This document shows, one piece after another, positions 6,574 through 59,090 of a stretch of 64,000 nucleotides of DNA. Each line of letters begins with the position of its first letter. Position 1 is the first letter of the stretch. The notes beneath the pieces are model-generated. The model ran no database searches, was not told the origin of the DNA, and worked only from the letters and a program-made list of their open reading frames with translations. Position numbers and translations under genes: made by a program. Source of the stretch: Bacteroidia bacterium (GTDB taxonomy: Bacteria; Bacteroidota; Bacteroidia; 2-12-FULL-35-15); the NCBI GenBank assembly GCA_045805205.1, contig JBJMLR010000009.1, forward strand, positions 197,658-261,657, written 5' to 3'.

Positions 6574-6620
6574 TTAGTTACCCAGTCACATAGTCACCTA
6601 ATCACTCGATCACTTCTGCG
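6574..6620. repeat. degenerate 8-bp tandem repeat (GTRAYTRG family, reverse orientation)
   Basis: ttagttacccagtcacatagtcacctaatcactcgatcact spans the 3' end of the permease gene. Confidence 0.55.
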
Positions 6621-7686: not shown

Positions 7687-7687
7687 T

Positions 7688-7777
7688 GGGTGATTAGGTG
7701 ACTGGGTGATTAGGTAACTAGGTGATTAGGTGACTGGGTAATTAGGTGACTGGGTAACTAGGTGACTAAGTAACTAC
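7688..7777. repeat. degenerate 8-bp tandem repeat, about 11 units (GGTGAYTRG)
   Basis: ggtgattag gtgactgg gtgattag gtaactag ... read directly. It overlaps the tgt 3' end. Confidence 0.85.
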
Positions 7778-11105: not shown

Positions 11106-11732
11106 ATGTCTGTCGAAATAATCAAGAAGTACTTTCCCGGAATTACTGATCATCAGTACCAACAATTTTCTGAATTACAATCTCTTTACGAATATTGGAA
11201 TGCGCAGATCAACGTGATCTCGCGCAAGGATATCGATCTGCTGTATGAAAGACATGTGCTGCATTCGCTGGGTATCGCGAAAGTAATGCAGTTCTCAGCC
11301 GGAACGAATGTGATGGATGTTGGCTGTGGTGGTGGGTTTCCGGGTATTCCGCTCGCGATCCTCTTTCCTGAAGCGAACTTCCTGCTGGTGGATTCCATCG
11401 GCAAAAAAATAAAGGTTGTGAATGAAGTTGCTTCTGCGATCGGGTTGAAGAACCTGAAAGGAGAGCACAAACGTGCTGAAGAAGTAAAAGAGAAATTTGA
11501 ATTTATTGTCAGCCGTGCCGTAACCGAGTTCCCTGTTTTTTACCGATGGGTTCAGAATAAATTCAGCAAAAATCAATTCAATCCATTGCCGAATGGGATC
11601 CTGTATCTGAAAGGCGGTGATCTTTCAGAAGAATTCAAAGCTTTTCAGAAAAGAGCGGCCTTTTATGATCTGAAAGAATATTATTCAGAAGCGTTTTTCG
11701 AGACGAAGAAAGTGGTTTATGTGGGTGTTTAG
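11106..11732 (+). CDS. rsmG: 16S rRNA (guanine527-N7)-methyltransferase
   Basis: GidB-like. SAM motif VMDVGCGGGFPGIPLAILFPE and the LVDSIGKKIKV pattern. Confidence 0.85.
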   Translation: MSVEIIKKYFPGITDHQYQQFSELQSLYEYWNAQINVISRKDIDLLYERHVLHSLGIAKVMQFSAGTNVMDVGCGGGFPGIPLAILFPEANFLLVDSIGKKIKVVNEVASAIGLKNLKGEHKRAEEVKEKFEFIVSRAVTEFPVFYRWVQNKFSKNQFNPLPNGILYLKGGDLSEEFKAFQKRAAFYDLKEYYSEAFFETKKVVYVGV

Positions 11733-11733
11733 C

Positions 11734-11808
11734 GTGTTAAAGTGTTAAGGTGTTTGAGTGTTAAGGTGTTTAAAGTGTTTGAGTGTTAAAGTGTCAGGGT
11801 GTTGTAGT
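11734..11808. repeat. degenerate tandem repeat GTGTTWARR (about 9 units)
   Basis: gtgttaaagtgttaaggtgtttgagtgttaaggtgtttaaagtgtttgagtgttaaagtgtcagggtgttgtagtg. Confidence 0.7.
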
Positions 11809-16330: not shown

Positions 16331-16345
16331 CTGGAATTTACTCAT

Positions 16346-16395
16346 CCAGTCACCTAATCACTTAATCACCTAGTCACCCAATCACTAGTCACCCA
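16346..16395. repeat. degenerate 8-bp tandem repeat (GTRAYTRG family, reverse orientation) abutting the ABC transporter stop
   Basis: ccagtcacctaatcacttaatcacctagtcacccaatcactagtcaccc. Confidence 0.75.
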
Positions 16396-18255: not shown

Positions 18256-18457
18256 CGCGGTAGTAATTGAGCTGCAAATTTATGTTTTTTTGAGGCTGGT
18301 TATTGCTGGAGTCCTTAATTTAAAAGATTGCTTCTCCGCCAGCCGGCGGATCGCAATGATGGTTAAGAAAGATCCTGATACTAGAGACGAACTGCCGGCT
18401 TGAATACCTTAAAAAGCTGAATTTTCCGAAAAAAAGAGGAAATTTGCAGGAAAATGC

Positions 18458-18897: not shown

Positions 18898-21714
18898 ATG
18901 CCAAGAGATAATTCCATAAAATCAGTCCTCATCATCGGAAGCGGTCCAATCGTGATCGGACAAGCCTGCGAATTTGACTATTCCGGCTCACAGGCCGCAC
19001 GTTCACTCAGAGAGGAAGGGATCAGGGTAACGCTGATCAACTCCAACCCGGCGACGATCATGACGGATAAAGTAACTGCGGAGAATATTTACCTGCTGCC
19101 GCTGGAAGTGAAGTCCATTGTAAAGATCCTGGAAGAAAACAAAGATATTGATGCGGTGCTGCCGACCATGGGCGGACAGACGGCCCTGAACCTCGCAATG
19201 AAATGCGATGAAATGGGCATCTGGAAGAAATACAATGTGAGAATGATCGGAGTCGATATCGATGCGATCGAGGTGACGGAGGATCGTGATAAATTCCGTG
19301 AGCGAATGGAAAGCATCGGTGTCGGAATGGCACCTTCCAAAATTGCAAAATCATTCCTGGAAGGAAAAGAGATCGCCCAGGACTTCGGTTTTCCATTGGT
19401 GATCCGCCCGTCCTTTACGCTTGGCGGAAGCGGCGGAAGCGTTGTATACCAGAAAGAAGAATTTGATGCAGCATTGAACCGCGGCCTGCACACGTCGCCG
19501 ATCCACGAAGTACTGATCGATAAAGCGGTGCTTGGCTGGAAAGAATTTGAGCTTGAGTTGTTGCGTGATGCGAATGACAACGTTGCGATCATCTGCTCGA
19601 TCGAGAATTTTGATCCGATGGGCGTTCATACCGGCGATAGCATCACGGTTGCTCCGGCAATGACCCTGAGCGATACCACTTACCAGAAGATGCGGACACT
19701 CGCGATCAAAATGATGCGCAGCATCGGAAATTTTGCGGGCGGATGTAATGTTCAGTTTGCGGTAAGCCCTGATGATGCGGAAGACATTATCGCCATCGAG
19801 ATCAATCCGCGTGTATCGCGTTCATCGGCACTGGCGAGTAAAGCAACCGGTTACCCGATCGCTAAGATTGCGTCGAAGCTGGCGATCGGTTATCACCTGG
19901 ATGAGCTGGAAAATCAGATCACCAAATCGACCTCTGCCTATTTTGAGCCGACGCTGGATTATGTCATTGTAAAAATTCCGCGCTGGAACTTTGATAAATT
20001 CAAGGGTGCGAAGCGTGAGCTTGGCTTCCAGATGAAATCGGTTGGCGAGGTAATGGGGATAGGCCGCTGTTTCCAGGAGGCATTACAGAAAGCTTGTCAG
20101 AGCCTTGAGATCAAACGGAATGGCTTGGGTGCAGATGGAAAAGAAGTGAAGAACCAGGATGAATTGCTGAAAAGCCTGGAGCGTCCGAGCTGGAATCGTC
20201 TGTTCCATATTTACGATGCGATCAAATTGGGGATCTCGATCAAAACGATCCAGAAGCTTACACGGATCGATCCGTGGTTTTTGAACCAGATCGAAGAGCT
20301 GATCATTCTTGAAAGCGAAATTTCTAAATACAGATTAGGAGATCTTCCGAAAGACCTGCTCTATGAGGCAAAGCAAAAAGGGTATGCTGACCGCCAGATC
20401 GCACATTTGCTGAATTGCCTCGAAAGTGAAGTATTCAATCGCCGCCGTGATCTGAATATCAATCGCGTTTATAAGCTTGTCGATACCTGTGCAGCGGAAT
20501 TCGAAGCGAAGACACCCTACTATTACAGTACTTTCGAAGATGAGAATGAAAGCATCGCCTCCGACAAGAAGAAGATCGTGGTGTTAGGAAGCGGTCCGAA
20601 CCGCATCGGACAGGGAATTGAATTTGACTACAGCTGTGTGCATGGCGTATTGGCTGCAAAGGAATGCGGCTATGAAACCATTATGATCAATTGCAACCCG
20701 GAAACGGTTTCTACGGATTTCAACGTTGCCGATAAGCTTTATTTCGAACCGGTGTTCTGGGAACATATTTACGATATCATCCTGAACGAAAAGCCGGAAG
20801 GAGTGATCGTTCAGCTGGGCGGACAAACGGCTTTGAAGCTGGCGGAAAAGCTGGAGCGCTATGGCATCAAGATCATCGGAACGGATTTCAAGTCGCTTGA
20901 CCTGGCTGAAGATCGCGGAAGCTTTTCGACTTTGCTGAAAGAAAATAACATTCCGTATCCGGAGTTCGGTGTGATCGAAGATGCGGAGCAGGCGGTGGAG
21001 CTTTCAAGAAAATTAGGATTCCCGCTGCTGGTTCGTCCGAGCTATGTGTTGGGCGGACAAAGCATGAAGATCGTGATCAATGAGCAGGAGCTGGAGCAGC
21101 ACGTTGTAAAACTGTTGCAGGATCACCCGGGCAATAAAGTATTGCTGGATCATTTCCTGGAAGGAGCGATCGAGGCTGAGAGTGATTCGATCTGTGACGG
21201 AAAAGATAATTACATCATCGGGATCATGGAGCACATCGAGCCGGCAGGGATCCACTCCGGAGATTCATACGCTGTTCTTCCTCCATTCGACTTGAGCGAG
21301 AATGTAATGAAGCAGATCGAGCAGCATACAAAAACGATTGCACTTGCTTTGAATACGGTCGGATTGCTGAACATCCAGTTCGCGATCAAAGATGAAGTGG
21401 TATACATCATTGAAGCCAATCCGCGTGCATCGCGTACGGTTCCGTTCATTGCGAAGGCGTATGATGAGCCGTATGTTAACTATGCAACCAAGGTAATGCT
21501 GGGTGCTAAGGTCAAAGACTTCAAATTCAGCCCGACCAAAAAAGGATATGCGATCAAGATCCCGGTATTCTCCTATGAGAAATTCCCGGAGGTGACCAAA
21601 GAGCTGGGGCCTGAAATGAAATCAACCGGTGAAGCGATCTATTTCATTGATGATCTGACGGATGAGTTCTTTCACAATATTTATTCTGAGAGGAATTTGT
21701 ATTTGAGTAAGTAA
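18898..21714 (+). CDS. carB: carbamoyl-phosphate synthase large subunit (short, about 938-aa form)
   Basis: Two ATP-grasp halves (IIGSGPIVIGQACEFDYSGSQA... and VVLGSGPNRIGQGIEFDYSCVH...). The last ~20 codons are duplicated in the downstream tandem array. Confidence 0.9.
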   Translation: MPRDNSIKSVLIIGSGPIVIGQACEFDYSGSQAARSLREEGIRVTLINSNPATIMTDKVTAENIYLLPLEVKSIVKILEENKDIDAVLPTMGGQTALNLAMKCDEMGIWKKYNVRMIGVDIDAIEVTEDRDKFRERMESIGVGMAPSKIAKSFLEGKEIAQDFGFPLVIRPSFTLGGSGGSVVYQKEEFDAALNRGLHTSPIHEVLIDKAVLGWKEFELELLRDANDNVAIICSIENFDPMGVHTGDSITVAPAMTLSDTTYQKMRTLAIKMMRSIGNFAGGCNVQFAVSPDDAEDIIAIEINPRVSRSSALASKATGYPIAKIASKLAIGYHLDELENQITKSTSAYFEPTLDYVIVKIPRWNFDKFKGAKRELGFQMKSVGEVMGIGRCFQEALQKACQSLEIKRNGLGADGKEVKNQDELLKSLERPSWNRLFHIYDAIKLGISIKTIQKLTRIDPWFLNQIEELIILESEISKYRLGDLPKDLLYEAKQKGYADRQIAHLLNCLESEVFNRRRDLNINRVYKLVDTCAAEFEAKTPYYYSTFEDENESIASDKKKIVVLGSGPNRIGQGIEFDYSCVHGVLAAKECGYETIMINCNPETVSTDFNVADKLYFEPVFWEHIYDIILNEKPEGVIVQLGGQTALKLAEKLERYGIKIIGTDFKSLDLAEDRGSFSTLLKENNIPYPEFGVIEDAEQAVELSRKLGFPLLVRPSYVLGGQSMKIVINEQELEQHVVKLLQDHPGNKVLLDHFLEGAIEAESDSICDGKDNYIIGIMEHIEPAGIHSGDSYAVLPPFDLSENVMKQIEQHTKTIALALNTVGLLNIQFAIKDEVVYIIEANPRASRTVPFIAKAYDEPYVNYATKVMLGAKVKDFKFSPTKKGYAIKIPVFSYEKFPEVTKELGPEMKSTGEAIYFIDDLTDEFFHNIYSERNLYLSK

Positions 21715-22000
21715 TTACAGCGCGTCATTGCGAGTGAGCTAGCGAACGAAGCAATCTGTCGTTTGATTTGACGGATAAGTTCTTTCATAATATTTATTCC
21801 CAAAGGAATTTGTGCCAGAGTAAATAAAATGCCCGTCATCCTGAGCGGAGTCGAAGGAGGGCCTTTTAGCGAACGAAGCAATCTCATCGTTTGATCTGAT
21901 GGATAAGTTCTTTCATGACATTTATTCCAAAAGGAATTTGTATCCGGGTAAATAATTACAGCGCGTCATTGCGAGTGAGTTAGCGAACGAAGCAATCTTA
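21648..22000. repeat. ~113-128-bp tandem repeat x3. Each unit is a copy of the carB 3' end (~20 codons plus stop) followed by the dispersed cgtcattgcgag...cgaagcaatc element.
   Basis: Units translate to DLTDEFFHNIYSERNLYLSK*, FDLTDKFFHNIYSQRNLCQSK* and FDLMDKFFHDIYSKRNLYPGK*. The first unit is the real carB terminus. Confidence 0.85.
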
Positions 22001-22262
22001 TTATAGTGATATTATAAAATGGAAAAAGGTCGGAGGGGATTCCTTCTTTGCCAAAGGTTTTTGGCGGATGAAGGGGTCCTATTTCGTGTGCTGTTGTCTC
22101 TTATAGTGTCTGTCACCACTGCCAGTAAAGATTTAGGCTATCCGAGAGGCGGACTTTTATAACAATTGGATTTGCAAGGCCAAGCCAAGTTAACACAAAA
22201 GCATCTTTGTAGTACGAAATCTTGCCTTTTGAGTAGTGCCGTTACTAATAGTTACTCTTTCT

Positions 22263-23633
22263 TCATTTCTTTTCTTTTATCAATTCCGTAACCTCGTTCG
22301 CTATTATTTTAATATTTTCTGGCTTTAAAACATTTTTAATAGAATCAGATATTTCTTCGTGTGGTGATTTTAGTTTAAGAAATGTGTCAATACCTTTAGA
22401 TGGGTTTGTATTTAATTGGTCTCTCAATGAATTAAACAATTCCATATACTCTGCGTCTTTATGTTCTAAACTGTACAATTCTCTGTATCCAGTCATTGCA
22501 GCAGCAATTGATGCTTTATGATGATATTCTTCAGCAAGTTTTTTTGCAATCTTTTGATTTCTATTTAGCATCCAAATTGCAAATATAAGCGCACCCGCAA
22601 TGCTAAATTGATAAATGAGAAGGTGATAATTGAACTCTTTGCCGCACAACAATAGAATTAACTGCGCTACTCCAAATGCAACAATGTCAGCAATTAACCA
22701 ATTTGTCAGGTTTAATGTTTTATTTTCTAGAGTTTGAAATTCTTTAGTGTATTCTTTTGCCCGTTCAGCAAAAGCATTGTGTAATGAGCTATCTGTTAAG
22801 GCAAGTAGCTTTTGTTCGGCATCAGTTGTTAATTTGCCTAATCTGTTAGCTAATGATTCAACAGTTGCTTTTAGTCCAAGCCCTTCCGTTTCTGTTTCTT
22901 CATCGACAACTTTTTCAAACACAGCTTTATAAAAGCTTCTTAATTTTTTTACTTCTTTTTCGTTTTCAGTTAAGTTTTTATTGAAATCATCTTTAATTTT
23001 GATAATTTGAGTTTTTACTGAATCTCTCCCTTCTTCATCTTCTAATAACAGTTTTTGTGCGGCAATAAGCTCAGTATGTTTACTTTCAATACCGGTATTT
23101 AATTTTTGTGAATCTGCAATCAGAGCAGTAGCTTCAGCAACAAGATTATTTAGACTAGCCTTTGTCGATTCTTTCCCGTCGATACCAATTAATGTTTCCG
23201 TTTTAAATTGATCAACATCGATTTTTACATTTAGGATTTGGGCTTTTATTGATTCTCTTCCTTCTTCACTTTCTAATAAAAGCTTGTGAGCAGAAACAAT
23301 CTCTTCCCGTTTGGCTTTAATATCAATAAGTGCTTCATTAATTACTTTTCTTGTTGATGGGTTTTCTTCTGTACCCACTAAGGTTTCGTTTTTGAATTTT
23401 TCAGCCTCTTCTTTTACTTCTTTTAATATTTGCTGGTCTATACCGGCTTTTACAATTACATTCTTAAATATAGTTTGATTAGATAAATGCTCACCCTCGT
23501 CAACTAAATTCTCTTTATAAAATATGCTGAGTTTGTCAATTTGAGCTTGAATAGCTTTAGTTTTTTTCGTTGTTTCGGTTATTAAAGCAAGAAGTTCTTC
23601 TCTTGTCAGTTCAGGACTATTTTTATCTTCCAT
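22263..23633 (-). CDS. repeat-rich coiled-coil protein with a C-proximal two-helix membrane hairpin (island gene A)
   Basis: 456 aa. About 300 aa of heptad-rich sequence with internal ~65-aa repeats (HKLLLESEEGRESIKAQI and QKLLLEDEEGRDSVKTQI). Two TM helices (WLIADIVAFGVAQLILLLCG and LLIYQFSIAGALIFAIWML). Strongly AT-rich DNA. Confidence 0.5.
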   Translation of the reverse strand: MEDKNSPELTREELLALITETTKKTKAIQAQIDKLSIFYKENLVDEGEHLSNQTIFKNVIVKAGIDQQILKEVKEEAEKFKNETLVGTEENPSTRKVINEALIDIKAKREEIVSAHKLLLESEEGRESIKAQILNVKIDVDQFKTETLIGIDGKESTKASLNNLVAEATALIADSQKLNTGIESKHTELIAAQKLLLEDEEGRDSVKTQIIKIKDDFNKNLTENEKEVKKLRSFYKAVFEKVVDEETETEGLGLKATVESLANRLGKLTTDAEQKLLALTDSSLHNAFAERAKEYTKEFQTLENKTLNLTNWLIADIVAFGVAQLILLLCGKEFNYHLLIYQFSIAGALIFAIWMLNRNQKIAKKLAEEYHHKASIAAAMTGYRELYSLEHKDAEYMELFNSLRDQLNTNPSKGIDTFLKLKSPHEEISDSIKNVLKPENIKIIANEVTELIKEKK

Positions 23634-23726
23634 TTTTATTTAGTTAATTTTAATTCGTTGCTTAAATGTTGAAGGGTTTGCGCAATTATCTACAGCGTTT
23701 CGCGGGCTGGCGCTCGGGCGGTCTTG

Positions 23727-24680
23727 TCATTGCGGTAGTATGTCATTTAGCTTGTCCGCAAACTCTTTTGAATCAGATACTTTTATTGGTTTGATAGTTA
23801 CTTCTTTGTTTTCTTTGTTGAAGTCGCTTATATGTTGAGCAACTAAAGGTGTCAAGTCGGTATTATAAACCAACCAAGCTTCTCCATTTTTGTTTTTAAG
23901 ATAATGTGCTAACTGATGAAATGTATTTAACCCAATTTTACTTCTACTCAGATATTTTGCTTCGATAAAGTACCGTTTATTGTTTTTCAAAAATATTAGA
24001 TCAATCCCTTTGTCCTCAAAATCATTGTTTTGAATGTCTAAGTCGGGGCGATTTCTTAATGCAGCCTCAATACTTTTTTCAAACTCAAAACTATATTCAT
24101 GTGTATCTTTGCTTGAAGAAATGTCTTGGATTTCGTTTTGAATTTCTGCATCCTTGTCTTTATCGGATTTGTATTTGAAAAAAGTGCTGATTAGTCCTAA
24201 TATTACAGTCGCTATTGCAAAAATCGTTGATAACAATTCAAGCCACCAAGTTTCTTTAGATTCGGCGTTTTGATTTTTAATTTTGGGGTTGAATTCTTTT
24301 GGCAACTGTAATTTGATTCGTTCAATTTTGTTTATCAGTTCCTTTCTTTTGGTCAATGGAAGAAATTTGTCCTCCATAAAAGATTCTTCGGTCTTTGTAA
24401 GGATGTCGTCTAGTGAAAGCGGAAAGCTTTGTTTTAGTGTAATTTCTTTAGCGTGAACAAGTGTCGGCAATTCATTAAGCGTAAATGTGGAATCTGAATA
24501 AATAAGTTCTTTGACTGATTGCAAAATTTCGCTCTCAGCATTTTTAATTCTTTCGTTCTGCGATTCTTGTAGCCAAGTCGGAACATACCAAACACCTATA
24601 TAAATGGTCGCAAAAAAACCAAGTATGCTAAATACTGTCCCGAAGTTTGTAAACCATTCTTTAAGTGTCTTTGTATTCAT
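23727..24680 (-). CDS. membrane-anchored protein with a C-terminal PD-(D/E)xK (restriction-endonuclease-like) fold motif (island gene B)
   Basis: 317 aa. TM helices at about 14-36 and about 148-170. The C-terminal GIDLIFLKNNKRYFIEAKYLS fits the hD...hExK core of Mrr/NERD-type nuclease domains. Confidence 0.4.
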   Translation of the reverse strand: MNTKTLKEWFTNFGTVFSILGFFATIYIGVWYVPTWLQESQNERIKNAESEILQSVKELIYSDSTFTLNELPTLVHAKEITLKQSFPLSLDDILTKTEESFMEDKFLPLTKRKELINKIERIKLQLPKEFNPKIKNQNAESKETWWLELLSTIFAIATVILGLISTFFKYKSDKDKDAEIQNEIQDISSSKDTHEYSFEFEKSIEAALRNRPDLDIQNNDFEDKGIDLIFLKNNKRYFIEAKYLSRSKIGLNTFHQLAHYLKNKNGEAWLVYNTDLTPLVAQHISDFNKENKEVTIKPIKVSDSKEFADKLNDILPQ

Positions 24681-24857
24681 AATATTCTACGTGTTGAATG
24701 ATCAACTATTGTTGCTGGTAACGTTTCGCGGCTTGGTGTTCGTTCGGGTTTTTAACTAAAATCATTTTTGCGAAGCCGAATTTTAAGATATTCAAATTTG
24801 TCTTGTGAAGCGAGATGCCCGTAAAGCGCAACGACCGCTGTCATAGGCAGGCAAATG

Positions 24858-26045
24858 TTAGAATGGCAAGCCATCATCTTTGTCTTCCGAAATGTCTACC
24901 GGCATCCATGGATATTTTTCAGTGTCAGTGATAAAATTTCTGGAAGAATTTGTAAATGTGCCCCAAAACTCTACTGGAGTTTCTTCATCAAAATCTGTTT
25001 CGAAAACATTCCCGTCTAATTCTAAGTAGAGGCTTTCTCCTTGTTTTTTGAATCTGCAAGTCACAACTTCAATTAATTTCCCTCTAGCCAAATTGTCTTC
25101 CTTGATTAAGGCTATTTCTTTTGATATTTGCAGCAACACCTTTTCTAATTCTGTTTTGATGACAGCGTAGTTTTTTTCGAGAGATTTTCTGCTAAATGTA
25201 AATCTTATTTGTTTTGTCAATACCACGCTTTCTGGCGTTTTAGTATAAGACGTGGGTGTGGCCTCGGTTACAGAAATTGTATGTTTTGATATTTCAGGAT
25301 ATCCAATAAGAATTTCGTCAGTTTTTAGATTAACAGTTTTTATTGAATACCCCAAAAAGCTTTTTTGTCGTTGTAGTATTGGTGACACAAATGATATAAT
25401 TAACTTAATCCATTCTTCTTTTTTGCTTTGTTTAAAAGTCACCTTACATTCCTCGATTCCCAATGTTACTATTTCCTTATACCAATTTTCCTCAGTATTT
25501 GTTGGCACAGTGTCTGGGCAAGTATAAAAGTCTCGCATCATTTTTTCAATTTCTGATAAGGTGTGAATCGAATTTTGCTTAACTAAGTCGATGTCTCCTT
25601 TTTTTATAGGTCTAAAATGAGCTAAGGAATTCCTCACATTACCAATTTCATCGAGTTTGTTTTTCATGATTTCTCTTGAACCCAAGAAATAGTTTTTGAA
25701 AAACTTCCAATATGCGTCTGAAGTAATTATTCTTATAAGCTCCCCACTCGTCAAGTGGAGTAACGGACTATTAATAACATAACCGAGGTAGGCGTAATTT
25801 TTGTCTTGCGAGAGCCGCTTTTTCGCGATAGCGCCAAGAGTCGAAGTTTCTGCATCATCGCTCGTTATTGAAAGATCTTTCCATTTATCTTGAAATTCAC
25901 TTTTCAGAATTATGAAGACGAAAACCCTTAAGGAATTTTCAATTCTGAATAAAATATTAAGCGCTTCAAAGTATTCAATCTTTAACCAATCCCCTGGCAG
26001 GTCATATAAATTCTTTTCAGTGTTTTTAGCTTCTTTCCAATCCAT
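24858..26045 (-). CDS. HEPN-domain protein, Abi_2 (AbiD/AbiF)/Swt1-like (island gene C)
   Basis: 395 aa. The alpha-helical N-terminal ~160 aa end in IGNVRNSLAHFRPI, an R-x4-H HEPN motif of the RN..AH type seen in Abi_2/Swt1 families. The size is similar to AbiD/AbiF. AT-rich. Confidence 0.4.
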   Translation of the reverse strand: MDWKEAKNTEKNLYDLPGDWLKIEYFEALNILFRIENSLRVFVFIILKSEFQDKWKDLSITSDDAETSTLGAIAKKRLSQDKNYAYLGYVINSPLLHLTSGELIRIITSDAYWKFFKNYFLGSREIMKNKLDEIGNVRNSLAHFRPIKKGDIDLVKQNSIHTLSEIEKMMRDFYTCPDTVPTNTEENWYKEIVTLGIEECKVTFKQSKKEEWIKLIISFVSPILQRQKSFLGYSIKTVNLKTDEILIGYPEISKHTISVTEATPTSYTKTPESVVLTKQIRFTFSRKSLEKNYAVIKTELEKVLLQISKEIALIKEDNLARGKLIEVVTCRFKKQGESLYLELDGNVFETDFDEETPVEFWGTFTNSSRNFITDTEKYPWMPVDISEDKDDGLPF

Positions 26046-26340
26046 CTTTCTATTTGTTTAGTTTGCTTGCCTATAAATTTCTTACTAACCGCAACTCACA
26101 CGCAATCCCACTGCATTTCAATAAATTAATACTCGTATAGAAGCGGATATAAAACGGGTAGAAACGTTTCTACACGGCTATAGAATTAAATCAATTCCAA
26201 TAAATTGACAGGAGGGAGTAGCTCGAATCGTATAGCTAAAATATAATAATTTCCGAAATGCGCAATGTTTATGCCAGCGAATAGGTAAAAACACCTATTA
26301 GAAGAGGAGCAAAATATCGATGTGCGCAGCTTATCATCGC

Positions 26341-26395
26341 CATGGTGAGATTGCTTCGTTCGCTACACTCACTCGCAATGACGCGCTGCAATGAA
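26341..26395. repeat. dispersed ~37-bp element (gattgcttcgttcgctacactcactcgcaatgacgcg), an inverted copy of the elements at 21720-21998
   Basis: About 36 of 38 nt identical to the reverse complement of 21962-21998. It explains the spurious LLRSL..AMTRCN ORFs at 21681-21887 and 26342-26584. Confidence 0.8.
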
Positions 26396-26433
26396 TCGCC
26401 TGGAGCTCTTTTTTCTTACTGCGTTTCCCAACC

Positions 26434-26997
26434 TTACTCTTTTTCTTCCGGAGCAAAATCGACTGAAACATCCTTGATCTTTTCATCCGGACCAAAAGCC
26501 AGGATCATCGATCGGATGGGACTGGATTCATTAGCATTTGTTATCGTCAGATACGTGGACAAAGCCAAAGATCCACCGCTCTGATCCCGGCAGGAATAGG
26601 ATTGCGGATATTTGCCGGCAAATTCGGAAAGGGACCAGGAGGGATCCAATACCACCTGCTCGTCCGAAAGGAATTTCACACCATTGTTGTGCAGGATATT
26701 CAGACTGGTCAGATACATCGCCTCACGGGAATCTCCATAGCTTATTTCAGTTTCCTCCGGATCGATGTATTTCATGGAATCCGGGCTCATTTTGAATTTA
26801 ATTGGTTTTGCAAAACCTTCAATGAGCAGCTGATCAAGCGGCAATGCATCAAATGTACAGGTGCCTGCGGCAAGTTTTTCCATTCGTTCTCTTTCCTGCT
26901 GCTTGTTGTTCTCTACCGAAGTCAATCCTTTGTACACAAGAAAGATGACAAGTCCCAGGATAAAAATTATGATGAATGCTTTCTTGAAGAGTTTCAT
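26434..26997 (-). CDS. hypothetical membrane-anchored protein
   Basis: 187 aa. N-terminal TM (FIIIFILGLVIFLVY). No recognised motif. Confidence 0.45.
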   Translation of the reverse strand: MKLFKKAFIIIFILGLVIFLVYKGLTSVENNKQQERERMEKLAAGTCTFDALPLDQLLIEGFAKPIKFKMSPDSMKYIDPEETEISYGDSREAMYLTSLNILHNNGVKFLSDEQVVLDPSWSLSEFAGKYPQSYSCRDQSGGSLALSTYLTITNANESSPIRSMILAFGPDEKIKDVSVDFAPEEKE

Positions 26998-27202
26998 GGG
27001 TATCCGTTTGCGAATAAAGATAGTAAATAGAACGCGGATGACACAGAAAACGCGGATCTACACGGATCTGTTTATCGTAATGATTCACCGAGCGGATTGT
27101 ATTTGCTTACGGATCGATTCGTACTGACAAGAATAGAAAAGCAATCTCCTTACTACAAAGAGATTGCTTTTCCGCCGGTCGCAGATCGTAATAGCGAAAG
27201 TT

Positions 27203-27694
27203 CTAGCTCTTCGTCAGCATTACATCCAGACTGTCGAGCGTCATTGTAAATCCTTCTTTAAAGCCCATTTCAATCATTTTTTCCATGCGTTCGAGACTAT
27301 CATTGTAAATGGAGATGTGCACTTTTGTTTTCCCGTTTTGTTCGCTGAAAGTCAGGTTCCAGTCAGAACCCGGTAAATGAAGATTTTCATCTTTGTCGGC
27401 GAAAACGCTCAGGAATTTGAAATTGCTCTTCGGGGTAATGGATGTGTATTTCTGGACCTGCCAGCCTTCGTTGCCTTCCGGACTTACCATTGCATAGAAT
27501 CGCCGGTCGCCCACCTCGAAGTTCATGTGCTTTGTTTTTGAGAGATAGGGTTTTGGTGCCCACCATTGATCAAGAATTTCAGGTTTGGTGAAAGCATCCC
27601 ATACCAGCGGGAGCTCCGCATTAAATTCGCGGTTAATGGATACCGTTTTTGTTGCTTTGTCGACAGTGAAGTCAAAGAGTGATGTGTTTTTCAT
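27203..27694 (-). CDS. SRPBCC-superfamily protein (AHSA1 / activator of Hsp90 ATPase-like)
   Basis: 163 aa. The [22 protein letters not shown] pattern is typical of the AHSA1 (PF08327) domain. Confidence 0.75.
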
Positions 27695-27699
27695 CTTAA

Positions 27700-27898
27700 A
27701 GTTAGTTTTTATTTGGTGAATTTTTCTAAGTGAACCTTGGTGCTCTGCGTGCCTTATGGCGAATAAAATTTTACCACTAAGACACTAAGATCACGTAGAA
27801 ACACTAAAGGTAAATCTTGGTTAAGCTTTATGGTGTTTTTTCTGCGTGAACCTTGGTGTTCTGAGTGCCTTAGTGGTGAATAAATTTTTACGACAGTA
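27700..27898. repeat. ~55-bp direct repeat x2 between the two AHSA1 paralogs
   Basis: ttttctaagtgaaccttggtgctctgcgtgccttatggcgaataaaatttta and ttttctgcgtgaaccttggtgttctgagtgccttagtggtgaataaattttta. Confidence 0.7.
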
Positions 27899-28396
27899 TT
27901 ACCGTTTCGCCAGCATTGTATCCAGGTTTTCCATCGCCATTGTAAGACCTTCCTTGAAGCCCATTTTGAGTGTAGCTTCCAGCTGAGCGAGGTCAGGATA
28001 GTTGATGATGCCTTCCACCAAGGTATTCTGGCCCATTTCTTTGAAATTCATGATCCATTTAGACTGCGGCATTTCAGGGTTGATCTTTCCATTGGAATCG
28101 CAGAATGCGTCATTGGCTGTGAATTTATTCATCGGTTCGATCTTTTCGTAGTTGGTGACCGACCAATGTTCTTCGCCATTGGGTCCTACTGCGGCGTACA
28201 GCCATTTGCCGCCTTCACGGAAATCCTGGCTCTTTGTTTTTGCTTTCCATGGTTTCGGCATCCACCATTGATCAAGGATCTTATGATCAGTATATGCTTC
28301 CCAGACCGTTGCGCGGTCCGCTGCAAATTCCCGTTGAATGGTGATCACGTTGTGTGTTTTGTCGACATTGAAGTCGAAGAATAATGTTTTGCTCAT
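27899..28396 (-). CDS. SRPBCC-superfamily protein (AHSA1-like), paralog
   Basis: 165 aa. ATVWEAYTDHKILDQWWMPKPW. Confidence 0.75.
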   Translation of the reverse strand: MSKTLFFDFNVDKTHNVITIQREFAADRATVWEAYTDHKILDQWWMPKPWKAKTKSQDFREGGKWLYAAVGPNGEEHWSVTNYEKIEPMNKFTANDAFCDSNGKINPEMPQSKWIMNFKEMGQNTLVEGIINYPDLAQLEATLKMGFKEGLTMAMENLDTMLAKR

Positions 28397-28534
28397 CTTT
28401 TCTGTTTTTTGTTTTATAATATATTCTGGTCTGATACTCTATTTCTCATTCTCTTCAATGTTTGCGTAGTGAAAAAATTAACCACAGAGGATCGGAGGGC
28501 ACGGAGGGCCACAGAGAAACAACTGTAGTAAGTT

Positions 28535-28852
28535 TTATTTCTTCTTTTTTAATGTGAACAGCACTTCATCCAGCTGGTTAAATTTGTCTTCCCACATTTT
28601 GCGGAACTGTTCGATCCATTTATCGATCTCTTTCATTTTGTTAATCTCTAGTGTATAGTATATTTCTCTGCCAACTTGTTCCTGGGTAACGACTTCACAT
28701 TCAGCAAGGATCTGCAGGTGCTTTGAAACCGCCTGGCGGCTGGTATTGAAATGTTCAGCCAGCGCGTTGGGTGTCATGGCATTCAGTGCGATCAGTGTAA
28801 TGATGGCTCTGCGGGTTGGATCGGCAATGGCCTGGAAGATGTCTCGTCTCAT
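28535..28852 (-). CDS. ArsR/SmtB-family transcriptional regulator
   Basis: [19 protein letters not shown] ... [21 protein letters not shown] (wHTH of the ArsR family). Confidence 0.8.
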
Positions 28853-28860
28853 TTCTTTAA

Positions 28861-28898
28861 TAGGTGATTAGGTAACCAGGTAACGGGGTGACTAAGTG
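28861..28898. repeat. degenerate 8-bp tandem repeat (GTRAYTRG family) in the ArsR upstream region
   Basis: taggtgattaggtaaccaggtaacggggtgactaagtg. Confidence 0.6.
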
Positions 28899-29015
28899 GG
28901 TACTTTCGTTTTTAATAAGCAACTAATCGGTTGCAAATATATGTGCAACTTTTCGGTTGCGCAAATTTAATTTCTGAATTGGTCGTAATTGGTTGGTAGT
29001 CAGCGATAAAAATTA

Positions 29016-29777
29016 TCAGGGTGTTAACGAAAGCGCTTTGATCCGGTCGCCATCAAAAGAAATATAGAGCACATTCGCGAGCGCTGACTTACCGTATTTG
29101 AAGTTTCCGGTCACCGCCAGGCGATTGCCGGTCCATGTTGTTACGCAGGATTCCAGGTGATAATCCTGGCTGTAAAGGAAGGTTCCGGGAGAAATAGCTT
29201 TCAGCAATGCTTTTCCGAATTCTTCTTTTTCATTCCTGCCGCTGATCATTACTTTGTTCAGCTGCTTAATAAAACCGGAGCTGATACCCGGCCCGACCGA
29301 GTTCGAGATCATGTCGGCGCTATCACCGCAGACAAACCCACCAAATTGCGCAGAACCGCCAACTTCATAGTGATGGGAATGGATCCCTCTATACAAATGT
29401 ACACCCGGGCAATATTTTGAAAATAACGGATCCGTTGTCTCGACAAGGTATTTCGCAGCTCCTTTTTTTGTGCTGTCCATTTCAAAGAATGAGAATTTCC
29501 AATGCATCTCTCCCGTCTTTGCATCAAAGGTTTCTGCAAAGGCACCGCTTCCCAAAGGGAAATAGTCGTCCGGATATTTTTTGTAAATGTTTATGAAAAA
29601 AGTTCCTTCGGGGCTGGAGCTGTCGATCGCTAAGGCCGGACCGGGACTATAGAAGAAAAGATCATCTGCGGCTTTGGTCTTTTCGGGATCTGATTTTGTG
29701 CCGGCTTCTGTTTTTGCAGGAGGCTTGCAATTGGCCAGGAGAAGAAGTATAAAGATGGAGTAGACGGCGGTCCGCAT
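29016..29777 (-). CDS. hypothetical lipoprotein
   Basis: 253 aa. Signal peptide with a lipobox-like LLLLANC. Confidence 0.4.
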   Translation of the reverse strand: MRTAVYSIFILLLLANCKPPAKTEAGTKSDPEKTKAADDLFFYSPGPALAIDSSSPEGTFFINIYKKYPDDYFPLGSGAFAETFDAKTGEMHWKFSFFEMDSTKKGAAKYLVETTDPLFSKYCPGVHLYRGIHSHHYEVGGSAQFGGFVCGDSADMISNSVGPGISSGFIKQLNKVMISGRNEKEEFGKALLKAISPGTFLYSQDYHLESCVTTWTGNRLAVTGNFKYGKSALANVLYISFDGDRIKALSLTP

Positions 29778-29786
29778 TTCCGAGCT

Positions 29787-30206
29787 CTATTTCTCTTCGC
29801 CTGTAAGATGTCCTTCCTCAAATAAGAGGGTCCGCAGCACCATGCCATTCTGATCTTTGATGTATTTCTTACCCGACCAGAGCGCTCCGTTTTTGTATGA
29901 ACCTTCTTCATCCGGAACATGCTCCGGATCGGGCTGCTGCTTCATGGCTTTTGTTTTCGGATCCCATTCTCCTTTGTAGATCTTATTTTCGAATGCCAGC
30001 ACACAAATGGTATTATGCTGGCTGTCCATGTACCTAACATAGCCGTTCACAAGTGAATCGCAGCGGAAGATCCCCTGCTCAAGGATAATGCAGTCGCTGT
30101 CGCTGGTCAGGCGTTTGCTGTCTCCATTTCTGCCGCGGCATCCTTGTGCAAAAGCAGCGCCTGTGACGAGAGAGAATAATAGGATCAATTTTATATTTTT
30201 CATCAT
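29787..30206 (-). CDS. hypothetical secreted protein
   Basis: Likely starts at MMKNIKLILLFSLVTGAAFAQ (signal peptide). The ORF-track start at 30260 is probably too long. Confidence 0.35.
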   Translation of the reverse strand: MMKNIKLILLFSLVTGAAFAQGCRGRNGDSKRLTSDSDCIILEQGIFRCDSLVNGYVRYMDSQHNTICVLAFENKIYKGEWDPKTKAMKQQPDPEHVPDEEGSYKNGALWSGKKYIKDQNGMVLRTLLFEEGHLTGEEK

Positions 30207-30327
30207 GGCGATATATATTTCTGTCGGAAGAAGAGATTGCTGAATTGCTTTACATAACAAGTGCTCTCGATGACGGCGCGATCTTCTTTAATCAAATATA
30301 AGGAAAGGGAATAAGAAAAAGAAGCGT

Positions 30328-30513
30328 TTATTTGATCTCCTCAAAATCCACATACTCACCTTCCTCTGCTATCGGATTTTTCTTTTTGGAGGCCGGCTCG
30401 GAATCTGTAGCAGGTCCCGGAGAGTCGTTCCGGCGGGGCCGCATGGAATTAACGCCGTCCATGATCCGGTAAAGGATCCAGACTACTAATATGGTATAAA
30501 AGACGTCGCGCAT
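30328..30513 (-). CDS. small membrane protein (DUF4834-like: N-terminal TM, acidic C-terminus ending YVDFEEI)
   Basis: 61 aa. TM helix FYTILVVWILYRIM. C-terminus EEGEYVDFEEIK. Confidence 0.35.
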   Translation of the reverse strand: MRDVFYTILVVWILYRIMDGVNSMRPRRNDSPGPATDSEPASKKKNPIAEEGEYVDFEEIK

Positions 30514-30547
30514 CGGATTGCAAAGTTAATCAGAATATGGTAGTTAT

Positions 30548-30605
30548 TTATTGTGATAATTAATTAATGTGATAATTAGGATAATTTGGTAATTAGTTAA
30601 TGGAG
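30548..30605. repeat. AT-rich degenerate tandem repeat (GTGATAATTA variant)
   Basis: ttgtgataattaattaatgtgataattaggataatttggtaattagttaatgg. Confidence 0.7.
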
Positions 30606-30917
30606 TAATCGAAAAGTACAGCTGTAATGCCTACGCTTAAAGGATTCCACTGCCATCGTCAGGCATGGCAGGATATAGCTCTGCAAAAAGAAACTGAATG
30701 CCTTAATTCTTAACAGAGAAATTGAATTAAAAGACCTGATTTTTAACGTTTTTGGCGAAGAAAAGCTTGTATCTAGAGTGTTTTTAAATGAAGTAGATAT
30801 CGCCAATTATTTCCCAGAATTCCAATCCGAGTCATATATACAAGGATATACTGGATAGTTTTCCCACGTGATTTCTACCTGCTTTTTACTATCTTTCGGA
30901 TAGCAAAAAACAACTCC

Positions 30918-31778
30918 ATGAACTTATTTAGTAAAGAAAACCCTTTTGTTGAGAGAGCAAAATCTCCTCTATATGGGACTTTTATCGTTTCATGGTTAAT
31001 ATGGAATTGGAGAATTGTTCTTACGGTCTTATTCCTTTCCAAGTCCGACTTTCATGGGTTCACTTTAGTTGAGTACATCGCCAATCATTACTTGCATTTC
31101 TGCAATATTTTGTTCGTCCCGTTGTTATTTACTGCCCTTTATTTATTTGCACTGCCTCACATTGATTACTACATATTGAGTTATACTGAAGAAAGAAAAA
31201 GAAGGAGAATAGACAAAAAAATGAAAATCCTAGGTAGTCACTCCGTGAGCGGTAGAGATTACAATGACTTGCTTTTTAAATATGATGCAGAAAGAAAAAA
31301 GATAATTACTATTCAACAGGAATTAACAACCGCCAATACAGAATTAGTTGGTACAAAAAACAAGCTTGAGGGACAAATCAACTCATATAATCAGCTAAAA
31401 ACGATTATAGATACTCACGAAGCGTCGTTAACTAGGCTTAGAAACCGACATCAATCGTCAGGTTTTTTTAATGGCAGATGGAAGAGGGAAGCAAAGTCGG
31501 GAACTCAGGTGTCAGAGCAAGAAGTTAGCATCCAAGCAAATGATTATTACCGTGTCAAGAATCGCGAAAACAAACAAACTCATATACTGGAATTAGTTAA
31601 TTTTGATCCTGATCGAGCTGATTTGGAATTTGCAAAGGTGTCAGTTGATAACACAGAAATTACTATATGCAAATTAAAAATTGTTGGCGACAACGTGGTA
31701 GAAGGAACCGAAGGAAAAGAAGTCGTGACTTATACGCGAAATAAGTATCAACAACAAGATCAACATACTAAAGTATAG
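30918..31778 (+). CDS. hypothetical membrane protein with a coiled-coil segment (AT-rich islet)
   Basis: 286 aa. Two N-terminal TM helices, then a coiled-coil (ITIQQELTTANTELVGTKNKLEGQINSYNQLKTIID). AT-rich DNA flanked by GTGATAATTA-type repeats. Confidence 0.45.
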   Translation: MNLFSKENPFVERAKSPLYGTFIVSWLIWNWRIVLTVLFLSKSDFHGFTLVEYIANHYLHFCNILFVPLLFTALYLFALPHIDYYILSYTEERKRRRIDKKMKILGSHSVSGRDYNDLLFKYDAERKKIITIQQELTTANTELVGTKNKLEGQINSYNQLKTIIDTHEASLTRLRNRHQSSGFFNGRWKREAKSGTQVSEQEVSIQANDYYRVKNRENKQTHILELVNFDPDRADLEFAKVSVDNTEITICKLKIVGDNVVEGTEGKEVVTYTRNKYQQQDQHTKV

Positions 31779-31853
31779 AGTTGCGTTGACTCAGTTCAGA
31801 TATAATTCCCCTACCTAATTATCAAATCCTGATTATCACATTCTCTAATTATT

Positions 31854-32648
31854 TCAATCCTTCGTCATCTTCCGCATCAGCCTATAAAACATCTTAGGGA
31901 AATAATGTTTTACATACACGGAAAAGATTTCGTACTTACCAACATATTTATGATCGCGGTTGCTTTTTACAGCAGAGATAATTCCTTTTGCGCAATCCAT
32001 GGCCGACATCCCTTTTTCCTGCGCTTCGCTTTTTACTCCATAGGGCGAACCATCTTCTTTTAAAAGCTTTGTGCTCACATCGGTATTAATGAAACCGGGT
32101 GTGGCGATCAATACTTTTACATTGTCTTTGTAGAGCTCTTGCCGTAAAGATTCAAACCATCCGAACAATGCATGTTTGGAAGCAGAATAAGTGGAGTAGA
32201 GCGGAAGTCCGTATTTACCCATGATGCTGGTAACAACCACCAGTTTACCTTCCTGCTGTTTCTGCATCACTTTCGCGACCGCCTTTGTCAGATTGATCGT
32301 TCCGAAAAAATTAATTTCCATCACTTTGCGATCCACTTCAGTTGGCGTATTTACCGCTTTTGTACGGTGTCCCATTCCGCTGTTATTGATCAGCACATCG
32401 ATACGGCCGAATTTTTTCAAAACAGCCTCCACCTTTTCCTGGATATTTTCGGTGTGTTCAAGATCGAGCGGGAGAACAAAAATATTTTCGAAAGGGATCC
32501 TGCAGGCAGCTGCAACACGCTCCAGCTCACCTTCGCGGCGCGCAGAAAGAACAAGCTTTGCACCCTCCGAAGCGCTCACGTAGGCAAGCGCTTCACCAAT
32601 TCCTGATGATGCGCCGGTGATCCAGATGATTTTGTCTTTGAGGTTCAC
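31854..32648 (-). CDS. SDR-family short-chain dehydrogenase/reductase
   Basis: TGASSGIG cofactor motif, NNSG and the catalytic YSASK (Y-x3-K). Confidence 0.85.
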   Translation of the reverse strand: MNLKDKIIWITGASSGIGEALAYVSASEGAKLVLSARREGELERVAAACRIPFENIFVLPLDLEHTENIQEKVEAVLKKFGRIDVLINNSGMGHRTKAVNTPTEVDRKVMEINFFGTINLTKAVAKVMQKQQEGKLVVVTSIMGKYGLPLYSTYSASKHALFGWFESLRQELYKDNVKVLIATPGFINTDVSTKLLKEDGSPYGVKSEAQEKGMSAMDCAKGIISAVKSNRDHKYVGKYEIFSVYVKHYFPKMFYRLMRKMTKD

Positions 32649-32721
32649 GTTTTCAATAGGCCGCCCTTCGACTCCGCTCAGGGTGACGCATCACCCGGCT
32701 GCATAGTCACCGGTCAACCTG

Positions 32722-33558
32722 CTACTTATTTTTATCCTGGAAATCCAATGATTTTACACCGAGAAATTTCAGAAACTTCTTCGCGTTGATCTTCAGGGTT
32801 TCCTTGATCTCCGTGAGTGCCGTTTTTGCAACACCTTCATCGGGTCTTGTTTTAAACCTGGAATCACGGTAAACAAAATCTTTTCCTGCGGGAGTGTAAT
32901 AATAGGCATAGAAAGATTTCCGGCTCTCATCGTCCGGGATATTGATCTTCGCATAACCGTGATATGATGTTTCATCTGTCACCATGATCGCCGCCTGGTT
33001 GAACCAAGGCATTACCTTGCTCATGCAGTTTTTTACATCTTTATCCCAGAACTCAAGTGCTCCGCCATATTCCTGCTTCCAGTTCTTATTCAGATAGATC
33101 AGCAGGTTAATGCGGCGATGTAATTTTGCCGCTGGGTTCATATTTACATCTACGTGGATGTCAACAAAGCTGCCCGGTCCGCCCTGGTGAACTCCAGAGC
33201 CCAATGCATCATAGGTAGAGCTGAGTCCGTCGATGCCGGTTACCTTGCTCATCCATTCATACATTTCAGGAGAGTTCAAAAAATCGCGGAGCTCATTAAA
33301 TTGCGGATGGTAACGGTCCAGGTGATATTCTTCGGATTTATTTTCGTTGATGCTCTTGCGTTTTACTTTCAGAGCGTCGAGCTTTGGAAAGTTGGAGTAG
33401 AGTGTGTCCGCTACCTCCGTTTGCAGAAAATCCGGCAGCGCCACATGTTTGCAGGGGATCGCCGTTTCGAACTGCTTGCGGATCTCATTTATCTTGTCTT
33501 CGCTCAAATAAGCGGGATTGATCAGATTCTTCATTAGTAACAGGGTTTTCAAAGACAA
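32722..33558 (-). CDS. 2OG-Fe(II) oxygenase-superfamily protein (prolyl-hydroxylase-like)
   Basis: HVDVN (HxD) with a downstream H. The RINLLIYLN pattern is typical of P4H/Tpa1-like domains. Confidence 0.5.
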   Translation of the reverse strand: MSLKTLLLMKNLINPAYLSEDKINEIRKQFETAIPCKHVALPDFLQTEVADTLYSNFPKLDALKVKRKSINENKSEEYHLDRYHPQFNELRDFLNSPEMYEWMSKVTGIDGLSSTYDALGSGVHQGGPGSFVDIHVDVNMNPAAKLHRRINLLIYLNKNWKQEYGGALEFWDKDVKNCMSKVMPWFNQAAIMVTDETSYHGYAKINIPDDESRKSFYAYYYTPAGKDFVYRDSRFKTRPDEGVAKTALTEIKETLKINAKKFLKFLGVKSLDFQDKNK

Positions 33559-33686
33559 AAATACACAAAAAAACGCAATTTGTGAGGGTTGAAAGCCACC
33601 TAAAAAATGGGCATTTAACAGTTTTTGGAGAGCCTGTCAGCCTGTTTTTACTATATATTTGTGTAGAACATTCATAAGCTATTTCT

Positions 33687-58257: not shown

Positions 58258-59016
58258 ATGTCGAAAATAGCCAAAAACATTAGTGTTCTGAGGGCACTAA
58301 AAAAATTATCCCAAACTCAGTTAGCGGATGAATTGAACATTTCGAGGTCCCGTTTAGGTTCTTATGAAGAAGGAAGAGCAGAGCCTCCGTATGATCTTTT
58401 GATCAAAATTGCGGATCATTTTCATGTTGCTATTGATGCTTTGGTGAGAGGAGATCTTGCAAAAACAGATCCGGACTCTTTAATGGAGATCGGTAAGAAC
58501 AGGATCCTGTTCCCGGTGATCGTGGATCGTCAAAACCAGGATATGGTGGAAGTGGTTCCTGCAAAAGCGGTAGCCGGTTATTTAAATGGTTATGCTGATC
58601 CTGAATTCATCGAAGATCTTCCAACAATGAACCTTCCTTTCAAGATCATTGGAAAGCACCGTGCATTTTCTATCAAAGGAGATTCTATGCCTCCGTTAAA
58701 AGATGGAACTTTTGTAGTCGGTAAATATGTAGAATCGCTGAGCGAGATCAAAGAAGGACAAACGTATATCGTGCTTACAAAAGAAGATGGTGTGGTGTAC
58801 AAACGCCTATACCGTGAAGACAAAAAAAGCACCGATGTTTTCCAGTTTCATTCGGATAACCCGGCATATTCACCTTATACTGTGAAGTCGGAAAACATCA
58901 TCGAGATCTGGAGCTTTATCTGCAGTCTGAATATCGGCGAGTTCAAGCCACAGGATCTCAACCTGGAAAGCATGATCAGATTCCTGCAGTCGTTCAGAGT
59001 GGAGATGGGGAAATAA
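58258..59016 (+). CDS. XRE-family HTH plus S24 (LexA/CI-like) peptidase-domain repressor
   Basis: HTH is LKKLSQTQLADELNISRSRLGSYEEG. The C-terminal S24 part has the FSIKGDSMPP (G-D-S-M) nucleophile motif and a later VYKRL lysine. Start chosen at MSKIAKN. Confidence 0.7.
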   Translation: MSKIAKNISVLRALKKLSQTQLADELNISRSRLGSYEEGRAEPPYDLLIKIADHFHVAIDALVRGDLAKTDPDSLMEIGKNRILFPVIVDRQNQDMVEVVPAKAVAGYLNGYADPEFIEDLPTMNLPFKIIGKHRAFSIKGDSMPPLKDGTFVVGKYVESLSEIKEGQTYIVLTKEDGVVYKRLYREDKKSTDVFQFHSDNPAYSPYTVKSENIIEIWSFICSLNIGEFKPQDLNLESMIRFLQSFRVEMGK

Positions 59017-59090
59017 TAATATCATAGCCCGGGGTTAAAAATAATATCATAGCCCGGGGTTAAAACCACCGGGCTATGATATTATTATTT
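59014..59090. repeat. REP/BIME-like palindromic unit: a 26-bp direct repeat x2 plus an inverted copy forming an ~18-bp-stem hairpin
   Basis: aataatatcatagcccggggttaaaa appears twice, followed by ccaccgggctatgatattatt. It sits immediately upstream of the IS200-like/RAYT gene. Confidence 0.7.

Follow-up and report, generated by a model that had tools for sequence, protein, structure and literature searches.

Diverged tandem copies of the carB 3′ end, each with a REP-like hairpin arm, in a Bacteroidia bacterium

Tandem duplications associated with REP/BIME sequences, with join points in REP sequences, were reportedly described in enterobacteria by Shyamala, Schneider and Ames in 1990, and Bertels and Rainey are said to have described REP singlets and REPIN doublets in 2011. 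Islands that sit in the 3′ ends of genes and bring a replacement end form another known group, with e14 and phage 21 in icd, SCCmec in rlmH/orfX and the islands of tRNA and tmRNA genes as examples. On the scale of a single hairpin, GNA mini-hairpins of the d(GCGAAGC) type have reportedly been studied by Hirao et al. Here we analyzed a stretch of 64,000 nucleotides (nt) from a Bacteroidia bacterium (GenBank assembly GCA_045805205.1, contig JBJMLR010000009.1, positions 197,658 to 261,657; hereafter the window), in which carB, the gene for the large subunit of carbamoyl-phosphate synthase, is followed by further copies of its own 3′ end, and each copy is followed by a dispersed hairpin element that we call an arm. 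An earlier interpretation made from the letters alone (the sequence-only reading) had noticed this array, explained it by repeated insertion of mobile elements and offered an old tandem duplication as its second option. It is the second option that the evidence supports: we consider it likely that the array is an old, lineage-specific tandem triplication of a segment of ~115 nt, in which the native end of carB (its last ~66 nt) is joined to a REP-like arm, and that units 2 and 3 are relics.

The carB 3′-end array and the native tail

A repeat search and blastn identified three contiguous, co-linear units in head-to-tail order and the same orientation (21646-22002; Table 1), each consisting of a 69-nt carB tail, in which the last ~66 nt of the gene are duplicated, and of an arm of ~40-55 nt. 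Tail identity is 77-91% overall (77-87% to the middle copy, and 91% over 55 nt between units 2 and 3), units 1 and 3 are 88% identical across the whole 107-nt unit, and the E-values within the window range from 1e-9 to 1e-27. Three diverged copies of the carB 3′ end that align with one another, and the dispersed element after every one of them, are thereby confirmed, and the translations written in the sequence-only reading match ours (...DLTDEFFHNIYSERNLYLSK for unit 1, FDLTDKFFHNIYSQRNLCQSK for unit 2 and FDLMDKFFHDIYSKRNLYPGK for unit 3, each ending at a stop codon). Two of its details held in part. The measured start-to-start distances are 113 and 128 nt, where it had given ~115 bp, and the mini open reading frames (ORFs) that it called in-register are so with respect to the repeat only; each of the three has its own frame when read against carB. 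When the tail was compared by blastn with the whole 64-kb window, no fourth copy was found.

Table 1. Coordinates of carB, the array and related features in the window
Feature	Position	Strand	Remarks
carB	18898..21714	+	938 amino acids (aa), complete, intact; ORF and Pfam CPSase_L_D1/D2/D3
GAAGCGATCT inside carB	21631..21640	+	matches the arm 3′ end GAAGCAATCT at 9/10 positions; the first duplication is proposed to have had its crossover or slippage here
Unit 1 tail	21646..21714	+	native carB 3′ end, including the TAA stop; repeat search, blastn
Arm 1	21718..21757	+	hairpin element CAGCGC-GTCATTGCGAG-TGAGCTAGCGAA-CGAAGCAATCT; nhmmer E=2e-12
Unit 2 pseudo-tail	21759..21827	+	probable non-coding relic; frame shifted relative to carB; 3-nt deletion
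Arm 2	21832..21884	+	chimera: CCT-type arm sequence (GTCATCCTGAGCGGAGTCGAAGGAGGGCCTTTT) joined to a TGC-type 3′ half (AGCGAACGAAGCAATCT)
Unit 3 pseudo-tail	21887..21955	+	probable non-coding relic
Arm 3	21959..21998	+	left arm of the inward-facing pair that flanks the cassette
AT-rich three-gene cassette	21999..26347	-	GC content ~0.33 versus ~0.45-0.50; adjoins the array, not part of it
Opposite-orientation arm	26348..26388	-	97.6% identity with arm 3; follows the stop of a 187-aa gene (26434-26997, -) by 45 nt
Free-standing CCT-type arm	32665..32688	-	a copy of this type gave arm 2 its 5′ half
Further arms	588-628, 650-689, 18324-18360 (variant)	-	

To place the tails among other CarB proteins, the last 400 CarB residues served as a query, which yielded 120 Bacteroidota homologs (79-96% identity), 119 of them with a complete C-terminus. 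All 119 stop at the identical residue and end in ...F..(I/V)YSERNLYLS(K/R); therefore a 938-aa CarB without an MGS-like domain is the norm in this Bacteroidota group, and the tail is ancestral. The unit 1 peptide is identical to the tails of three related species that lack the array (L002, L004 and L081), the DNA differences from these three are all synonymous, and against six orthologous tails unit 1 shows 7-14 differences per 63 nt, compared with 13-22 for units 2 and 3. With a peptide that matches single-tail species and with DNA closer to the orthologs than that of units 2 and 3, the tail joined to carB is the native copy, and the enzyme would be unaffected by the array. According to the sequence-only reading, it is repeat sequence that specifies the present C-terminal tail of CarB. 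The 119 homologs and six orthologous tails indicate that this is backwards, with the repeats deriving from the native tail, and comparison of the unit 1 peptide with the other C-termini gave the same end in 119/119.

Over the same 63 nt, units 2 and 3 differ from each other at 9 positions and from unit 1 at 11 and 12 positions, respectively, and they have a 3-nt deletion and several substitutions in common. Relative to unit 1 there are four amino-acid changes in unit 2 and six in unit 3; by codon position, the nucleotide changes fall 4/2/5 between units 1 and 2 and 5/2/5 between units 1 and 3. K5, C17 and Q18 of unit 2, and K5, K13, P18 and G19 of unit 3, are absent from all 119 CarB tails, and positions Y17, L18 and S19, invariant in 119/119 CarBs, are altered in the pseudo-tails. 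Neither unit has a start codon giving 20 aa or more. With never-seen states at invariant positions, no start codon and differing frames, the extra copies are free of the constraint on carB. Since units 2 and 3 are nearest to each other, then to unit 1 and farthest from the orthologs, carry residues never seen in CarB and have changed at all codon positions, we conclude that they are probably untranslated, decaying relics of the carB tail of their own lineage.

The arms of the array are of two makes. Arms 1 and 3 differ at only 1 of 43 positions (21715-21757 versus 21956-21998). Arm 2 is a chimera: its 5′ part, GTCATCCTGAGCGGAGTCGAAGG, represents a second subfamily and agrees over 18 nt without a mismatch with the free-standing copy (32665-32682), and it shares its 3′ part, AGCGAACGAAGCAATCT, with arms 1 and 3. 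All three arms finish in GAAGCAATCT (21748-21757, 21875-21884 and 21989-21998), exactly where the next unit or the cassette starts.

When 185,579 species genomes were scanned, 80 carB loci were recovered. The six closest relatives (L001-L005 at 94-95% amino-acid identity, and the metagenome contig L081 at 96%) each have a single tail, and a second carB tail was found in none of the 80 genome loci; alignment with related genomes thus gives one unit only, and the array is absent from them. A metagenome scan with a degenerate 32-nt pattern that fits all three tails returned 0 matches. The array accordingly appears, from these comparisons, to be lineage-specific. By eye, a hairpin with a T-run, typical of a terminator, was recognized within ~60 nt of the carB stop in L001-L004 and L081, and none was identified in L005. 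That terminator is missing from the window, where 21400-22400 holds one weak terminator-like site only.

Two reading frames, a 68-aa ORF (21681-21887, -) and a 21-aa ORF (21829-21894, +), run through the arms and pseudo-tails. The spurious peptides that arise in this way (...IASFASSLAMT..., MPVILSGVEG...) are of the kind that yields false 'hypothetical proteins' in annotations.

Origin of the array and competing explanations

These observations provide the basis for a model of how the array arose. A dispersed arm would have settled 3 nt after the carB stop; in five of the six closest relatives, a clear intrinsic terminator occupies this place. The segment between GAAGCGATCT within carB and GAAGCAATCT at the arm end, 117 nt downstream, would then have been duplicated by replication slippage or unequal sister exchange; we propose this step because a 9/10 microhomology lies at the repeat boundary and a stable hairpin favours such slippage. 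The GAAGCGATCT site is located just upstream of the left edge of the repeat, the periods to successive arm ends are 117, 127 and 114 nt, and we put the probability of meeting a 9/10 match by chance at a near-collinear offset at ~0.004-0.008. A second duplication, of the pseudo-unit and by ordinary unequal recombination, is suggested next by the mutual closeness of units 2 and 3 and by the 3-nt deletion present in both. The 5′ half of arm 2 would have been replaced by that of the other arm subfamily, the chimera itself being directly visible. Finally, the pseudo-tails, whose divergence is observed, would have drifted freely, and the arms may have stayed near-identical through sequence constraint or homogenisation, either of which is plausible given the identical motifs in very different genomes. 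We also count in favour of tandem duplication a habit of the arm family, the recurrence of arms in direct tandem elsewhere.

Several observations weigh against this model. Over the 11-13 nt beside the proposed crossover, identity to carB falls to ~60%; this leaves the exact breakpoint uncertain, and the microhomology could be coincidental. Among the arms examined, no other duplication of an arm plus a gene tail was found. The comparison set consists of other species only, and no allele of the array with one or two units was seen. Furthermore, the single difference in 43 positions between arms 1 and 3 stands against 12 differences in 63 between their tails (Fisher p=0.013), and these values do not fit a unit that was simply co-duplicated and then decayed neutrally along its whole length, unless constraint or gene conversion acting on the arms is added.

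The last discrepancy needs no extra assumptions if the tails were tripled first, as a tail-only array of ~70 nt, and mobile arms were inserted later and independently just after each stop or pseudo-stop, since arms that are 98% identical would then be expected to accompany tails that are 81-86% identical. The differing make-up of arm 2 fits this order of events, as does the presence or absence of arms at an orthologous site in different species, where a perfect 26-nt doublet of L005 (9210-9282) is without counterpart in the window (33559-33686). However, three independent insertions at homologous positions would be needed, with a target preference that other arms do not show: their 5′ flanks vary (...ATTCATTG, ...CCCTACCA, ...AATAATTA). 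The coincidence of GAAGCGATCT and GAAGCAATCT is left unexplained, and the 6 nt between stop and arm (TTACAG...) common to arms 1 and 3 fit co-duplication; we regard late insertion of the arms as unlikely, yet not negligible. It is also conceivable that the array is functional, as a structured 3′ untranslated region or a stand-in for the terminator of carB, as a buffer against convergent antisense transcription or as a set of silent cassettes that vary the CarB C-terminus. Consistent with this are the loss of the terminator present in five of the six closest relatives, in a region with one weak terminator-like site, the transcription of the cassette genes toward carB and the conservation of the arms. 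Against a function, the array is absent from all relatives, has no Rfam match and no excess folding energy, and its tail divergence looks neutral; the pseudo-tail residues are never tolerated in CarB, and their donation would damage a housekeeping enzyme. Taken together, this makes a functional array very improbable.

The sequence-only reading favoured successive integrations of attP-bearing elements into the 3′ end of carB, each bringing a replacement end, with the AT-rich cassette as cargo. Duplicated gene 3′ ends do lie downstream of an intact gene, a foreign-looking, defence-like cassette does adjoin them, and the region downstream of carB does vary among relatives. Nevertheless, the copies are adjacent, with only a repeat of 40-55 nt between them, and blastn of the whole window placed no tail copy distal to the cassette or elsewhere, so that the cassette is not bracketed. 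Pfam detected no integrase, recombinase or transposase domain in the 12 ORFs tested between carB and a conserved YfhO-like gene (22.2-36.2 kb), and no recombinase-type gene was found among the cassette ORFs by NCBIfam, PHROGs or PADLOC. The gene-proximal copy is native-like, copies 2 and 3 derive from it, and site-specific excision leaves one attachment (att) site, not an array. Homologs of the HEPN protein of the cassette (72-88% identity) occur at unrelated loci in other Bacteroidota, with different partners and not beside carB; at the DNA level these loci share only the HEPN gene, and no arms are near. Because no tail lies beyond the cassette, no recombinase accompanies it and its HEPN homologs elsewhere lack arms, the cassette is a separate acquisition in the variable region downstream of carB and not cargo of the units, and serial insertion of attP-type elements is extremely improbable. 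Another possibility is that a trans-acting nuclease or recombinase with its site of action at the arm's inner end (following ...GCAATCT) worked on the look-alike in carB, leaving the array as a by-product, and also placed the cassette between REPIN-like arms. All unit boundaries and the cassette boundary do fall right after ...GAAGCAATCT; the cassette lies between arm 3 (+) and the arm at 26348-26388 (-), which is the same inward geometry as in 12/12 close pairs elsewhere; and the arm family, being very widespread and variable between species at an orthologous site, implies a mobilising activity. Yet none of the 12 ORFs tested in the interval from carB to the YfhO-like gene encodes a candidate enzyme, a + then - geometry is expected in 1 of 4 cases by chance, no parallel case of a kb-scale insert between arms was seen, and plain slippage at the hairpin accounts for the same facts, so such a by-product is scarcely credible. 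A broader conjecture, in which the arm is the recognition hairpin of a putative trans-acting strand-transfer enzyme that joins just after ...GAAGCAATCT, the array is a fossil of its use of GAAGCGATCT, the 4.35-kb cassette entered a REPIN-like doublet and was captured between its two arms, and the cross-phylum hairpins are landing pads for gene cassettes, is in our judgment a long shot.

Apart from these explanations, two candidates were tried and rejected. A diversity-generating retroelement with variable and template repeats (VR/TR) was considered for the array: taking unit 2 as template, 4 of the 11 differences between units 1 and 2 have an A in unit 2 in a by-eye count, all kinds of substitution occur, and the 12 downstream ORFs tested contain no reverse transcriptase. 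The other candidate made the cassette a transposon and the two arms its terminal inverted repeats; the HEPN homologs elsewhere are armless, and no transposase was found.

The arm family and the region downstream of carB

Within the window, the outer motifs of the arm, GTCATTGCGAG...CGAAGCAATC, were found at five loci (seven arms), in addition to one variant (Table 1). The architecture is GTC-ATTGC-GAG, a variable inner hairpin (often GCGNAGC), then CGAA-GCAAT-C, and the commonest form, seen in viral contigs, is GTCATTGCGA-GCGAAGC-GAAGCAATC. At least 120 viral contigs carry arms, and 80 readable loci hold 125 instances. Four metagenome contigs (35-57% GC) match the subtype of the window exactly over 33-35 nt, and in three the arm and an inverted partner make up a ~90-nt palindrome. 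Inner stems covary, as in CCCGC/GCGGG versus TCCGC/GCGGA and in CTGAC/GTCAG. In all 12 close inverted pairs the ...GCAATC ends face each other, and inverted doublets occur in L005, L082, L083 and L085. Direct tandems of arms occur at 590-690 of the window (63-nt period), in L111 (43 nt), L137 (33 nt, four times), L126 (117 nt) and L142 (96 nt), and also in L112. Arm orientation is uniform within a contig. Co-orientation with transcription was examined as a rule and rejected, as it applies to 4/4 arms in the window but in viral contigs to 28, against 20 in the opposite orientation.

Searches against Rfam gave no match at the gathering score in the window, nothing relevant at E<=10 in 21550-22150 and nothing relevant at E<=1 on three arm-bearing loci (L082, L084 and L085). 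A full-text literature search by arm sequence, on both strands, returned only unrelated primer matches. Single-strand folding of each arm was no better than that of shuffles, in a nearest-neighbour model that gives no credit to sheared G-A pairs, and the whole array likewise folded no better than shuffles (z = +0.23); given that model, neither result disproves a hairpin. Based on their sequence and arrangement, the arms appear closest in kind to REP singlets and REPIN doublets, and the family is apparently an uncatalogued, very widespread hairpin element. At 27140-27177, just downstream of the stop of a gene at 27203-27694 (-), we also observed a perfect hairpin made from the inner motif of the arm only (AAGCAATCTC-loop-GAGATTGCTT), which resembles a terminator made of element sequence.

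The cassette beside arm 3 encodes a 456-aa coiled-coil and transmembrane protein, a 317-aa transmembrane protein and a 395-aa Swt1-like HEPN protein, as assigned by Pfam, PADLOC, NCBIfam and PHROGs scans. The HEPN protein has a weak match to the PADLOC candidate system PDC-M34B, and the cassette is probably a defence-type module. The C-terminus of the 317-aa protein resembles a PD-(D/E)xK nuclease, by eye only. With regard to its position between two inward-facing arms, the cassette could have been inserted into the loop of an arm doublet.

Further downstream lies an 851-aa YfhO-like gene (33687-36242), a homolog of which begins ~270-350 nt after carB in several more distant relatives (L010, L036, L043, L045 and L051). 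The gap between carB and this gene is ~12 kb in the window and about 5 kb in L005. The interval from 21715 to 33686 carries variable genes, among them two AHSA1-like genes, an SDR gene and a 2OG-Fe(II) oxygenase gene, of which L005 has only the last two; the flank has the look of a gene-turnover hotspot without a recombinase gene. Downstream of the carB terminator in L003 (7300-7530), other short, dispersed-looking motifs are present (CGTTCTCG...GGGTGACAGTTCGAA), which suggests that different repeat families colonise the same carB flank in different species.

Other short repeats were noticed in the window. Tandem arrays of 8- and 16-nt units (GGTGACTA, TCACCTAA, GTGTTAAA, TTAGTTAATGTGATAA and similar) are located at 695-722, 6575-6605, 7687-7776, 11724-11803, 16342-16395, 30544-30609 and 62534-62643; two of these arrays (695-722 and 16342-16395) adjoin the ends of genes, and one of the two lies next to two arms. 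At 59015-59065, the 25-nt sequence AATAATATCATAGCCCGGGGTTAAA is duplicated exactly in tandem.

Significance and comparison with known systems

The array would be a dated example of REP-like hairpins remodelling the 3′ flank of a housekeeping gene, including the loss of an ancestral terminator, and it teaches that duplicated gene 3′ ends beside foreign DNA need not be att sites. For annotation it calls for caution, as neither the mini-ORFs nor the 68-aa antisense ORF is to be taken for a gene. The array may also serve as a strain marker. It is real but ordinary, and its practical value is modest; the arm family is more noteworthy than the array itself.

The array resembles islands in gene 3′ ends in having partial copies of a gene end downstream of an intact gene, with foreign DNA near. 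Such islands, however, are flanked by the copies, come with an integrase and import the copy that lies next to the gene; none of the three holds at carB. The likeness to GNA mini-hairpins lies in the commonest form of the arm, which has exactly the GCGAAGC core, and in the occurrence of GCGNAGC variants; the arms of the window, in contrast, have a longer inner segment (GAGC-TA-GCGA), and the structure of the arm is predicted from its letters only.

With REP and REPIN sequences the arm shares more: it is an imperfect, dispersed extragenic hairpin of ~25-45 nt that occurs as singlets, in tandem clusters and in inverted doublets of fixed geometry, and its presence or absence varies between species. 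It differs from them in lacking a GTAG-type 5′ motif, in the absence of a RAYT gene from the region tested (within the 64-kb window) and in keeping identical outer motifs across contigs of 35-57% GC and at least 120 viral contigs. The REP/BIME-associated duplications, finally, are like the array in that a small, dispersed extragenic hairpin repeat lies at a head-to-tail join and no dedicated mobile-element enzyme is needed. In those duplications two REP copies recombine, and the products extend over kb to hundreds of kb and are unstable; at carB, in contrast, one of the proposed partners is only a 9/10 look-alike in a coding region, the unit measures ~115 nt, and the copies are old and diverged.

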